From: a virus | Lineage: Duplodnaviria > Heunggongvirae > Uroviricota > Caudoviricetes | Reading direction: 5' to 3' (one strand) | Length of the DNA: 64,000 nt | IMG/VR virus record: IMGVR_UViG_2718218131_000011 | Location: 20,026-84,025 of that record | Shown here: positions 717 through 2,568 of the stretch, piece by piece | Position numbering within the stretch: the first letter of the stretch is position 1 | Layout: each line of letters begins with the position of its first letter | Translations under genes and position numbers: made by a program | Notes under the pieces: model-generated | What the model saw: only the letters and a program-made list of their open reading frames with translations | Database searches by the model: none | What the model was told of the DNA's origin: nothing

Positions 717-1829
717 TTAGAATTGGTAGGTCATACCAACAGCAACGATGTTGTCGGTTGCAACCTCAGATGCTTTGGTAAATTCACTTTCATCAATCAG
801 GTTGATCTTGTAGTCAACGAAAGCGGACATATTTTTGTTGAAGTAATAAGTCGCGCCTACGTCGATGTATTCAACTAGATCCTGGTTACCGAACGCACCA
901 ATATTTTCACCGCGAGAGTGCAGGTAAGCGATGGACGGACGCAGGCCGAAATCAAACTGGTATTGAGCAACAGCTTCAAAGTTTTTCGCTTTGTTTGCGA
1001 TAAAGTCATCACCGAAGACTGTCATATTCTGAGTTTCAGAATAAGTTGCAGCCAGGTAAATGTTGTTTGCGTCATATTTCAGACCAGTAGCCCATACTTC
1101 AGCTGTTTTACCAGAAGCATTCAGAGAGCTTGCATTAGCATAGGATACCTGTCCATCAGTACGGTCAGATTTTGCATAAGTTGCGCCAATGCCAAATCCT
1201 TCATAATCATAAGTAGCTGACAGACCGAAGCCATCACCATTAGATTCAACTACGTCGCGGCCTTTCCAGTTGTTCACTTTTGCAGCACTATCATTTTTAC
1301 CCTGATACTGCAAAGCAAAGTTCAGACCATCAACCAAGCCGAAGAAATCATTGTTACGATAGGTCGCGACGCCAGTAGCACGCTGGGTCATAAATACATC
1401 AGTCTGAGTCCAGGTATCTCCACCAAACTCCGGCAGCACGTCAGTCCAAGCGCCAACATCATACGCTACACCGTAGTTGCGACCATAGTCGAGCGAACCA
1501 TAATCGCCAAAGCGAAGCCCTGCAAACGCAAGACGAGTTTTGTCTTTATCAGAACCTTCAGTTTCAGTACGGTTACCTTTAAATTCGTACTCCCACTGAC
1601 CAAAACCGGTTAACTGGTCATTAATCTGAGTTTCACCTTTGAAACCCATACGAGCATAAGTTTTATCCCCGTCATCACTAGCTGAAGAAGAGAAGTAATG
1701 CTCTGCATTAACTTTGCCGTACAGATCCAGTTTGTTACCGTCTTTGTTATAGATTTCTGCCGCTTGTGCAGACATTGCCATCAGGACTGATGCTGCAACC
1801 GCAGAAAGTGCCACTGTGATTTTTTTCAT
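717..1829 (-). CDS. general outer-membrane porin, NmpC/Lc/OmpD family (phage-type porin)
   Basis: 370 aa; signal peptide [23 protein letters not shown]; [17 protein letters not shown]... ; C-terminal ...VAVGMTYQF with terminal Phe; near-colinear with recalled NmpC/Lc porin sequence. Confidence 0.85.
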
Positions 1830-1940
1830 TTTTTTGCCCTTTAGATTGAACTTTTCAGTAGAAAAGAGGTCACTGCGGACAAATGTTTATCTTTTTTGGA
1901 TTCGTGTTTCAAGTTTTGCAAATAAAAATCAAGGTATTTT

Positions 1941-1956
1941 TGTGATCAAAATCACA
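1941..1956. promoter_or_regulatory. candidate CRP-binding site upstream of the porin gene
   Basis: Perfect TGTGA-N6-TCACA palindrome (TGTGATCAAAATCACA) about 110 bp upstream of the porin start in an AT-rich leader. Confidence 0.3.
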
Positions 1957-2568
1957 AATAATAACCTTGAAAACCCAATGGACTATTAGAAAAATCTCAA
2001 TTCACAGAATAAAAATTGACAAAATAGAACAAAACACAATCAACAATAAGCACAAAAGACAAACAATTAAATTAGCACAAAAATAATAACTGCAAAAATA
2101 GATAGCCTGTTAATTAATAGGGTTTTAATGGATGTGGATTTGAAATCTACTTAAAAAGTAGAGTCAAATTAATTACTGTCGATTGGGTATTAAACTGAAT
2201 CTATATTGTGAGAGTTAAAGACGATGTGTTTTAGTTATACATGTTATTCCCTAAAATGGAGTAGTCTCATCGAATTCTGATTAATAACGAGCTAAGCCAA
2301 TTCATTTTAGTATGTGTATATCTTTACCCTCTGAATATGCAATGACGAAGAGATATTAAACAATATGTAGCTTCAGGATTGACTCTGGAAGAATTAAAAG
2401 ATCGGCTAAAGTGTTCAATATGTGGTGAGCGAAACGCAAAAATTAAAATTTTTTGATCTAACATATTAGGCAATAGCTTGCTTCCATAACCTAAAGCAAG
2501 CCACTACGCGTTTACTTTAAGTACACAATTAACATATCAGAACAGATTATTTGTGCACTATCAGGGAG

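Follow-up and report, generated by a model that had tools for sequence, protein, structure and literature searches.

A 64,000-nucleotide stretch of a tailed-phage genome (Duplodnaviria; Heunggongvirae; Uroviricota; Caudoviricetes; IMG/VR record IMGVR_UViG_2718218131_000011, positions 20,026 to 84,025; hereafter the window, numbered from its first letter) carries the nmpC porin cassette of phage P7, and we propose that on this P7-like phage-plasmid the cassette probably acts as a CRP-controlled porin swap with a trans-acting tail. The cassette is an intact, self-contained unit of about 1.5 kb, in which a CRP site and promoter precede an Lc/NmpC-type porin gene, a structured 3′ untranslated region (3′UTR) and a terminator. 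The porin is real but already known at the level of annotation, and the gene is fairly common; the added value is modest and lies in the IpeX-family tail of its transcript and the predicted MicF-like pairing of that tail with host porin mRNAs.

In the mechanism that we favour, a lysogen would transcribe the porin from the gene's own sigma-70 promoter, overlapped by no P1 C1 operator, and cAMP–CRP, bound at a class-I-type position, would activate this promoter under glucose shortage. Its mRNA would yield a trimeric outer-membrane porin with surface loops unlike those of Lc, OmpC and OmpF, while its 3′UTR, within the mRNA or after processing, would act in trans like IpeX to lower the synthesis of host OmpF and OmpC. 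A conserved single-stranded stretch is predicted to pair with the Shine–Dalgarno and start regions of ompF and ompC, engaging the same stretch of ompF as does MicF. The net effect would be a porin swap, which would alter outer-membrane permeability and deprive other phages and colicins of their OmpC and OmpF receptors. P1 and P7 adsorb to lipopolysaccharide, and PA-2 lysogens lose OmpC, the PA-2 receptor. The elements of the cassette, with the basis on which each was assigned, are as follows.

536–2015, − strand: core mobile porin cassette (terminator, 3′UTR RNA, porin coding sequence, promoter and CRP site); recurs outside P1-like elements
535–560, − strand: Rho-independent terminator, stem at 543–560 and U-run at 535–542; terminator scan and folds
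535–716, − strand: 3′UTR RNA of 182 nt, IpeX family; fold and covariance model
666–701, 644–665 and 617–641, − strand: hairpins 1, 2 and 3, followed by the single-stranded stretch and the terminator; fold
588–614, − strand: conserved single-stranded stretch 5′-AAUUUAACUUCAUGUUAUUUAUUACCC-3′, predicted antisense seed; centroid fold and duplex prediction
717–1829, − strand: porin gene (P7 nmpC allele), 370 residues; open reading frame (ORF), Pfam, NCBIfam, P7 annotation and PHROG 410
1761–1829, − strand: signal peptide codons of the porin; alignment
1884–1912, − strand: candidate sigma-70 promoter, −35 TTGAAA at 1907–1912, 17-nt spacer, weak −10 TAAACA at 1884–1889; conservation only
1941–1956, no strand assigned: CRP site TGTGATCAAAATCACA with a perfect core; only TGTGAN6TCACA match in the 64-kb window

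The ORF at 717–1829 is intact and encodes a complete general porin. Its match to Pfam Porin_1 (PF00267) spans the whole profile (1–337 of 337; 494.6 bits against a cut-off of 23.7, E = 2.3 × 10−148), alignment reveals a cleavable signal peptide (also annotated in the P7 record), the PEFGG loop-3 constriction motif and a C-terminal ...TYQF, and the best PDB sequence matches are Omp36, OmpC and OmpK37 (E of about 1 × 10−135). By global alignment, the protein is 98.4% identical to P7 NmpC, 84.2% to the porin of lambdoid phage ev099, about 81% to 434 NmpC and 80.8% to PA-2 Lc, followed by chromosomal OmpD-type porins of Salmonella arizonae, Citrobacter and Enterobacter (72–76%) and by PhoE (65.6%), OmpC (63.2%) and OmpF (59.4%) of Escherichia coli K-12. 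These values assign it to the prophage porin clade Lc/NmpC (79–84% identity), and tblastn against phages likewise places Lc/NmpC-type porins closest. The signal peptide MKK(I/L)TVA(L/I)... is common to the window porin and the lambdoid porins; OmpD has MKLKLVAV... instead. Residues that distinguish the window porin from the Lc types cluster at 181–196, 226–242 and 306–315, which are external loops (L4, L5 and L7) as judged by alignment to OmpC, and the first cluster holds an eight-residue insertion, VNNWKGRD, in L4. A preliminary description of this DNA, made from the sequence without database searches, had proposed a complete general porin between ssb and the dar operon, akin to the prophage porins NmpC and Lc; the full-length Porin_1 match, the P7 annotation and the gap between the Lc/NmpC identities and that to OmpC bear this out. 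The same description overlooked the 182-nt IpeX-type 3′UTR.

The porin also passes the cut-off of the NCBIfam OmpC subfamily (531.7 bits against 484), and the label 'porin OmpC' that it receives from the Prokaryotic Genome Annotation Pipeline (PGAP) and RefSeq reflects the breadth of that hidden Markov model rather than orthology. Orthology to ompC was rejected given 63.2% identity to the K-12 protein, the lack of a MicF match upstream and flanks that are phage-plasmid DNA.

From the porin stop codon to the terminator, the transcript is predicted to fold far more stably than shuffled sequence (minimum free energy −66.1 kcal/mol, z = −5.6). A long tail of this kind is found in phage-type porin genes, whereas chromosomal OmpD-type genes end in a short plain terminator. 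The tail of DLP12 and PA-2 has the same order and spacing of hairpins, AU-rich stretch and terminator, with hairpin interiors that differ in sequence. An Rfam search of the true DLP12 IpeX locus returned nothing and, because IpeX has no Rfam family, we built our own covariance model, trained on four DLP12/PA-2-type tails only. This model gives a single match in the window, at 562–719 (−) with 73 bits (E of about 3 × 10−15, a rough value), and no match at ompC, ompF, phoE or chromosomal OmpD-type loci.

Structures were compared through per-sequence folds and a model-based alignment, as MAFFT/RNAalifold misaligned hairpins 1 and 3 across clades. With the model-based alignment, pairing holds in 98% of cells and 12 of the 39 pairs differ on both sides, compared with 39–52% and 0–1 when the partners are slid. 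Adding 66 IMG/VR copies (34 distinct rows) brings the number of compensatory pairs to 13, which no shuffle reaches; over the two versions, 97–98% of cells are paired and slid controls give 0–3 such pairs. These numbers are tempered by an alignment that was itself fitted to the structure and by changes that go back to about three clades. In all 68 full-length model matches, the RNA begins at the stop codon of an ORF whose product terminates in ...YQF, and in 61 of them that ORF is at least 340 residues long. On these grounds of sequence and predicted fold, the window 3′UTR is a diverged homologue of IpeX, the porin-tail RNA of DLP12 and PA-2, which is reported for DLP12 to lower OmpC and OmpF (PMC3617542).

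A third, intermediate clade of tails was encountered in two IMG/VR contigs (156 bits to the IpeX-type model); its hairpin 1 has a sequence of its own (GCUG-AGAAGGU...AUCUUCU-CAGC), and its seed is AAACUUUCUGUUAUAUAUUACCC. An Rfam search at E ≤ 10 over 400–2700 found no MicF, only a subthreshold GcvB match on the 3′UTR and weaker noise; as neither MicF nor any other family matched upstream of the porin, there is no micF-like divergent RNA. Membership of the GcvB family (RF00022) was rejected (30.4 bits against a gathering score of 42, E = 2.8 × 10−4 for 2.3 kb, at 535–721 (−)), the likeness being one of architecture only, in hairpins, U-rich linker and terminator.

The stretch at 588–614 is unpaired in the centroid fold save for a weak 4-bp hairpin (UAAC/GUUA); it is the best conserved unpaired part of the tail and is invariant in P7-type copies. 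Its seed is complementary to ompF mRNA over 13 of 13 contiguous Watson–Crick positions at GGGUAAUAAAUAA, plus AUGAAG, and to ompC mRNA over 11 of 11 at AAUAACAUGAA, plus GUUAAA (6), covering the Shine–Dalgarno sequence and the start codon in both, and it has 12 nt, UUAUUUAUUACC, in common with MicF. Duplex energies were computed with the single-stranded segment only, as full-length RNAs gave unphysical end-to-end duplexes, with the following results.

Window tail against ompF: −28.9 kcal/mol; 2 of 1,000 dinucleotide shuffles as good
Window tail against ompC: −23.4 kcal/mol; 11 of 1,000 dinucleotide shuffles
MicF against ompF, for scale: −27.1 kcal/mol; 0 of 1,000 plain shuffles
DLP12-type tail against ompC (Shine–Dalgarno register): −26.7 kcal/mol; 1 of 1,000
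DLP12-type tail against ompF: −18.6 kcal/mol; 29 of 1,000

The controls, phoE and the porin's own mRNA, gave no duplex signal with the seed. Among natural 65-nt segments, 0.02% reach the ompF value and 0.23% the ompC value. The best match in this natural background (29539–29596, −31.8 kcal/mol) is a long, loop-ridden, G–U-rich duplex that was treated as an artefact of the method, and its existence indicates that the duplex energies are permissive. The predicted ompF match of the seed is strong; that to ompC is persuasive only because ompC is an a priori target. Building on these predictions, we tentatively suggest, as a possibility that falls somewhat short of probable, that phage-porin 3′UTRs (IpeX and the P7-type tail) form one MicF-like antisense family, in which the core UGUUAUNUAUUACC and its flanks would pair directly with host ompF and ompC at their ribosome-binding regions, the two clades would have retuned the ompC register, the porin mRNA would by itself silence the resident porins, and a one-transcript porin swap would be carried by lambdoid phages, P1-like phage-plasmids and islands flanked by insertion sequences (ISs).

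Several considerations weigh against pairing. The prediction contradicts the published view of IpeX: a 2013 review holds that base pairing with ompC or ompF is not how IpeX works (PMC3617542), and a 2025 review describes its regulation of ompC as not reliant on complementarity alone. The seed is AU-rich, such seeds match fairly easily and, at a natural background of 0.23%, several unrelated E. coli mRNAs are expected to match as well as ompC by chance. The 3′UTR might then only stabilize or terminate the transcript, or act in an IpeX-like manner without pairing, its complementarity to ompF and ompC being a fossil of an inverted porin 5′ end; the + strand at 584–621 does resemble a porin ribosome-binding site with a start codon (AAGGGTAATAAATAACATGAAGTTAAAT), and the complementarity could thus be historical. 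Against this, both clades keep strong complementarity to ompC in different registers, the DLP12 type at the Shine–Dalgarno sequence and the P7 type at the start codon, a pattern that is difficult to reconcile with a decaying fossil. From clade to clade, no other unpaired part of the RNA is as well conserved, even though the adjacent helices have diverged in sequence, and the phoE and own-mRNA controls lack complementarity. We regard a tail that has no role in trans, or that works without pairing, as fairly unlikely.

The + strand at 584–621, which is the reverse complement of the conserved unpaired 3′UTR stretch, reads AAAAGGGTAATAAATAACATGAAGTTAAATTGAGAAG, its first half matching ompF and its second half nearly matching ompC. 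There are hints here that the antisense seed may have arisen from an inverted porin 5′ end.

Upstream of the porin, the perfect CRP consensus singled out in the preliminary description is indeed present and unique in the window. The chance expectation for TGTGAN6TCACA is 0.11 per window and 11 of 100 shuffles contain at least one, so the site alone is mildly unlikely, and its weight derives from position and conservation rather than from mere occurrence. The TCACA half-site ends 111 nt before the ATG, as does the annotated CRP site of PA-2 lc (1363–1383 in GenBank record J02580). When nine promoters were aligned (P7-type plasmid, chromosomal-island and lambdoid copies), the TCACA half-site, CTTGAAA and the CGCAGTGAC block proved invariant and the rest diverged; the full TGTGATTTTGATCACA is kept in all aligned P7-type plasmid copies, and the lambdoid copies have one good half-site. 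Were TTGAAA the −35 and TAAACA the −10 element of the candidate promoter, the CRP site would be centred at about −71.5 relative to the predicted start. A CRP centre near −71.5 corresponds to a class I position, as do centres near −61.5, −82.5 and −92.5. The related ompD of Salmonella is activated by CRP (PMC5137417), and from homology we infer that the window porin may be under similar control. A 14-nt inverted repeat (1815–1828 and 1943–1956, 86% complementary) joins the CRP site and the first porin codons (ATGAAAAAAATCACA); it is probably coincidental, as both contain AAAATCACA.

The approximately 740 bp upstream of the porin had been described as one long AT-rich leader. The composition stands (25–32% GC over 1900–2500), but the region is a mosaic of cassette promoter DNA (1830–2015, about 186 bp), a spacer (2016–2347), an isaB remnant and the isaB/hxr intergenic region, and the porin 5′UTR is likely to be only about 50 nt long. 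Searching the window with the P1 C1 operator consensus ATTGCTCTAATAAATTT, at no more than 3 mismatches, gave 7 matches (26154, 27813, 42015, 45538, 58236, 61859 and 61908; 0.29 expected), which fit the immunity network of the P1 family. None of them is near the porin, with no operator within 26 kb. Repressor control of the porin was dropped, all seven sites being far from the gene, and the lack of a nearby operator makes expression from its own promoter in the prophage state plausible.

The cassette sits in a backbone of P1/P7 type, the neighbouring features of which are listed here.

1–483, + strand: 3′ part of ssb, P1/P7 backbone, left border; Pfam SSB, 98.1% to P1 ssb up to the stop codon, annotated in P7
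484–2347, no strand assigned: P7-type segment replacing isaA–IS1–isaB(5′) of P1, region RD-2; P1 homology borders and P1 annotation
2016–2347, no strand assigned: AT-rich spacer of 332 bp, in P7-type plasmids only and not in chromosomal or lambdoid copies; 25–32% GC
2349–2456, + strand: isaB remnant, last 35 codons and stop; 5 of 35 residues differ from P1 IsaB
2569–2874, − strand: hxr, called odaA in P7, the final dar-operon gene and right-hand backbone; ORF, P7 and P1 annotation

Over its first 6 kb, the window shares 98.8% DNA identity with Enterobacteria phage P7 (AF503408/NC_050152), in the record of which the ORF is annotated as "nmpC, NmpC precursor", flanked by ssb and odaA/hxr-prt/ddrB-darA. 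Homology to P1 extends over 1–483 and begins again at 2348; the intervening 1,864 bp replace isaA, IS1 and most of isaB, in agreement with the position that the preliminary description had assigned to the gene. The replaced slot is the variable region RD-2 of P1-like plasmids, for which nmpC has been named (Venturini et al. 2019, PMC6906374). Positions 484–2568 (2,085 bp) are 100% identical in several complete P1-like plasmids. At the borders of 484–2347, a search for direct and inverted repeats gave no IS ends and no target duplications that would explain the replacement; the spacer yielded no Rfam match at the gathering score and no terminator-like or promoter-like site; and no PADLOC defence-system model matched the porin or Hxr.

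The same unit recurs in unrelated surroundings. Chromosomal IS-flanked islands match 493–2016 at 95.5% in E. coli NB4833 and 536–2015 at 79.6% in E. coli A_5, and in the lambdoid copies (PA-2, ev099 and DLP12) DNA homology is confined to 585–1892. Since the borders at 493/536 and 2015/2016 recur in these contexts, the unit can be taken to span everything between the terminator and a point some 60 bp past the CRP site and, judged from its distribution, the cassette moves independently of its phage carriers. In both islands the porin, tail and promoter block lie amid IS3, IS4, IS1, IS21, IS110 and TnpB remnants, with no P1-like or lambdoid genes nearby.

The preliminary description considered a porin on a phage-plasmid to be unusual cargo, a view that does not hold, as this is the annotated nmpC of P7, already named in the RD-2 study (PMC6906374). 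The neighbouring P1-like gene ddrB occurs in 482 of 5,426 complete E. coli genomes, at 478 plasmid places, and 153 of the genomes have the P7-type porin tail, at 99 places on plasmids and 55 on chromosomes, giving an occupancy of about 100 of about 478 plasmid-borne P1-like elements (approximately one-fifth). In PLSDB, 129 plasmids match, including 3 from Klebsiella and 2 from Salmonella.

Individual plasmids illustrate the plasticity of the slot. In the Escherichia fergusonii plasmid pTB91P2 the cassette adjoins a full-length isaB-like gene (615 bp), from which it follows that truncation of isaB is not obligatory to insertion. In the avian pathogenic E. coli plasmid pEND_Eco 19025-2 (NZ_CP126933.1), ISEcp1–blaCTX-M-125–IS903B occupies the place of the porin while the AT-rich upstream DNA (equivalent to 1850–2568) is kept; the RD-2 hot spot thus also takes up resistance genes. 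The cassette is split by an IS4-like ISVsa5 in NZ_MN510446.1 and NZ_CP101271.1, the DLP12 and 434 porin copies carry IS5, making porin cassettes frequent IS targets, and pSvP1 has IS10 inside nmpC (PMC6906374).

The principal alternative to a working porin swap is that the cassette is a silenced or cryptic passenger, hitch-hiking in a recombination hot spot of P1-like elements with no phenotype in most conditions. Several observations lean this way: the DNA around and upstream of the porin is very AT-rich, as is typical of H-NS-silenced DNA; the consensus promoter scan called no − strand promoter, the TTGAAA/TAAACA site included, and the candidate −10 element is weak; quiescence in laboratory E. 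coli has been described for nmpC-type genes, and those of K-12 and B are reported as quiescent or IS-inactivated; and RD-2 cargo varies between plasmids, down to the exchange of the porin for ISEcp1–blaCTX-M-125, which together with the IS-disrupted copies indicates that the cassette is dispensable for the phage. A passenger without function would, however, hardly be expected to retain an intact porin ORF ahead of 61 of the 68 full-length RNA matches, to conserve the CRP core, the −35 element and the 5′UTR block CGCAGTGAC among copies that differ by 20–25% elsewhere, or to maintain its 3′UTR helices by compensatory changes. Such conservation points to a unit that is expressed and kept under purifying selection, and we accordingly consider silent carriage quite unlikely. 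That the porin is a chromosomal ompC/ompF-type gene in a chimeric assembly, for which the PGAP name and the NCBIfam OmpC score might be cited, has a negligible probability: chromosomal kin and flanks, which the preliminary description had put forward as the finding that would overturn its claim of phage cargo, were looked for and the idea was rejected, because both flanks are P1/P7 backbone, the protein is 63% identical to K-12 OmpC, the same arrangement is found in P7 and many closed plasmids, and 484–2568 recurs identically in complete plasmids.

If the CRP-controlled porin swap operates as proposed, its consequences would extend beyond the phage, as the P1-like phage-plasmids that bear the cassette are also vehicles of mcr-1 and extended-spectrum β-lactamase genes. 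Exchange of the major porins would change permeability to β-lactams and other hydrophilic drugs, would leave therapeutic phages and colicins without OmpC and OmpF as receptors, and would confuse genotype-based porin calls, in which PGAP labels the cassette porin as 'porin OmpC'. Direct pairing of the tail with ompF and ompC, if true, would also resolve the mechanism of IpeX.

Among known systems, the closest is P7 nmpC, the same gene in the same place between ssb and odaA/hxr, from which the window differs by a few substitutions and one codon of length (370 residues compared with 371 in P7); exact matches to the window are found among field plasmids (one from ETEC1731, for example) and not in P7 itself. 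With Lc of PA-2 and NmpC of DLP12 and 434, the window locus shares the clade, the signal peptide, the distance from CRP site to ATG, the −35 element, the 5′UTR block and a homologous 3′UTR. Their carriers are lambdoid phages, in which the gene lies between Q and S/lysis genes and runs opposite to the late genes, whereas the window gene lies between ssb and hxr of a P1/P7-type element, a location that is a feature of the context and not of the gene. Both CRP half-sites are perfect in the window and one in PA-2, and loops L4, L5 and L7 differ from those of Lc, OmpC and OmpF, the L4 insertion setting the window porin apart from the Lc types.

IpeX is a 167-nt RNA from the DLP12 nmpC 3′UTR and is identical in PA-2. 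Both it and the window tail run from the porin stop codon to the terminator through three hairpins and an AU-rich single strand, and they have the core UGUUAUNUAUUACC in common. At 182 nt, the window tail is longer, with 19 nt inserted ahead of the terminator; inside hairpins 1 and 3 the sequence has been replaced through changes that compensate one another, and blastn with the window 3′UTR does not pick up DLP12-type tails, the two being too diverged. A few bases differ in the seed; with these, the predicted ompC register moves from the Shine–Dalgarno sequence to the start codon, and the predicted ompF match is perfect over 13 nt. OmpD of Salmonella and its Citrobacter and Enterobacter orthologues are the next closest porins (72–76%), with ompD being CRP-activated, but these are chromosomal genes with a different signal peptide, a short plain terminator and no match to the RNA model. 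MicF, finally, is predicted to cover the same region of ompF as the window tail with a similar duplex energy. Membership of its family (RF00033) was rejected, with no match at E ≤ 10 over 400–2700; MicF is a free-standing gene divergent from ompC, whereas the window tail is the 3′UTR of a porin mRNA and is complementary to ompC as well.

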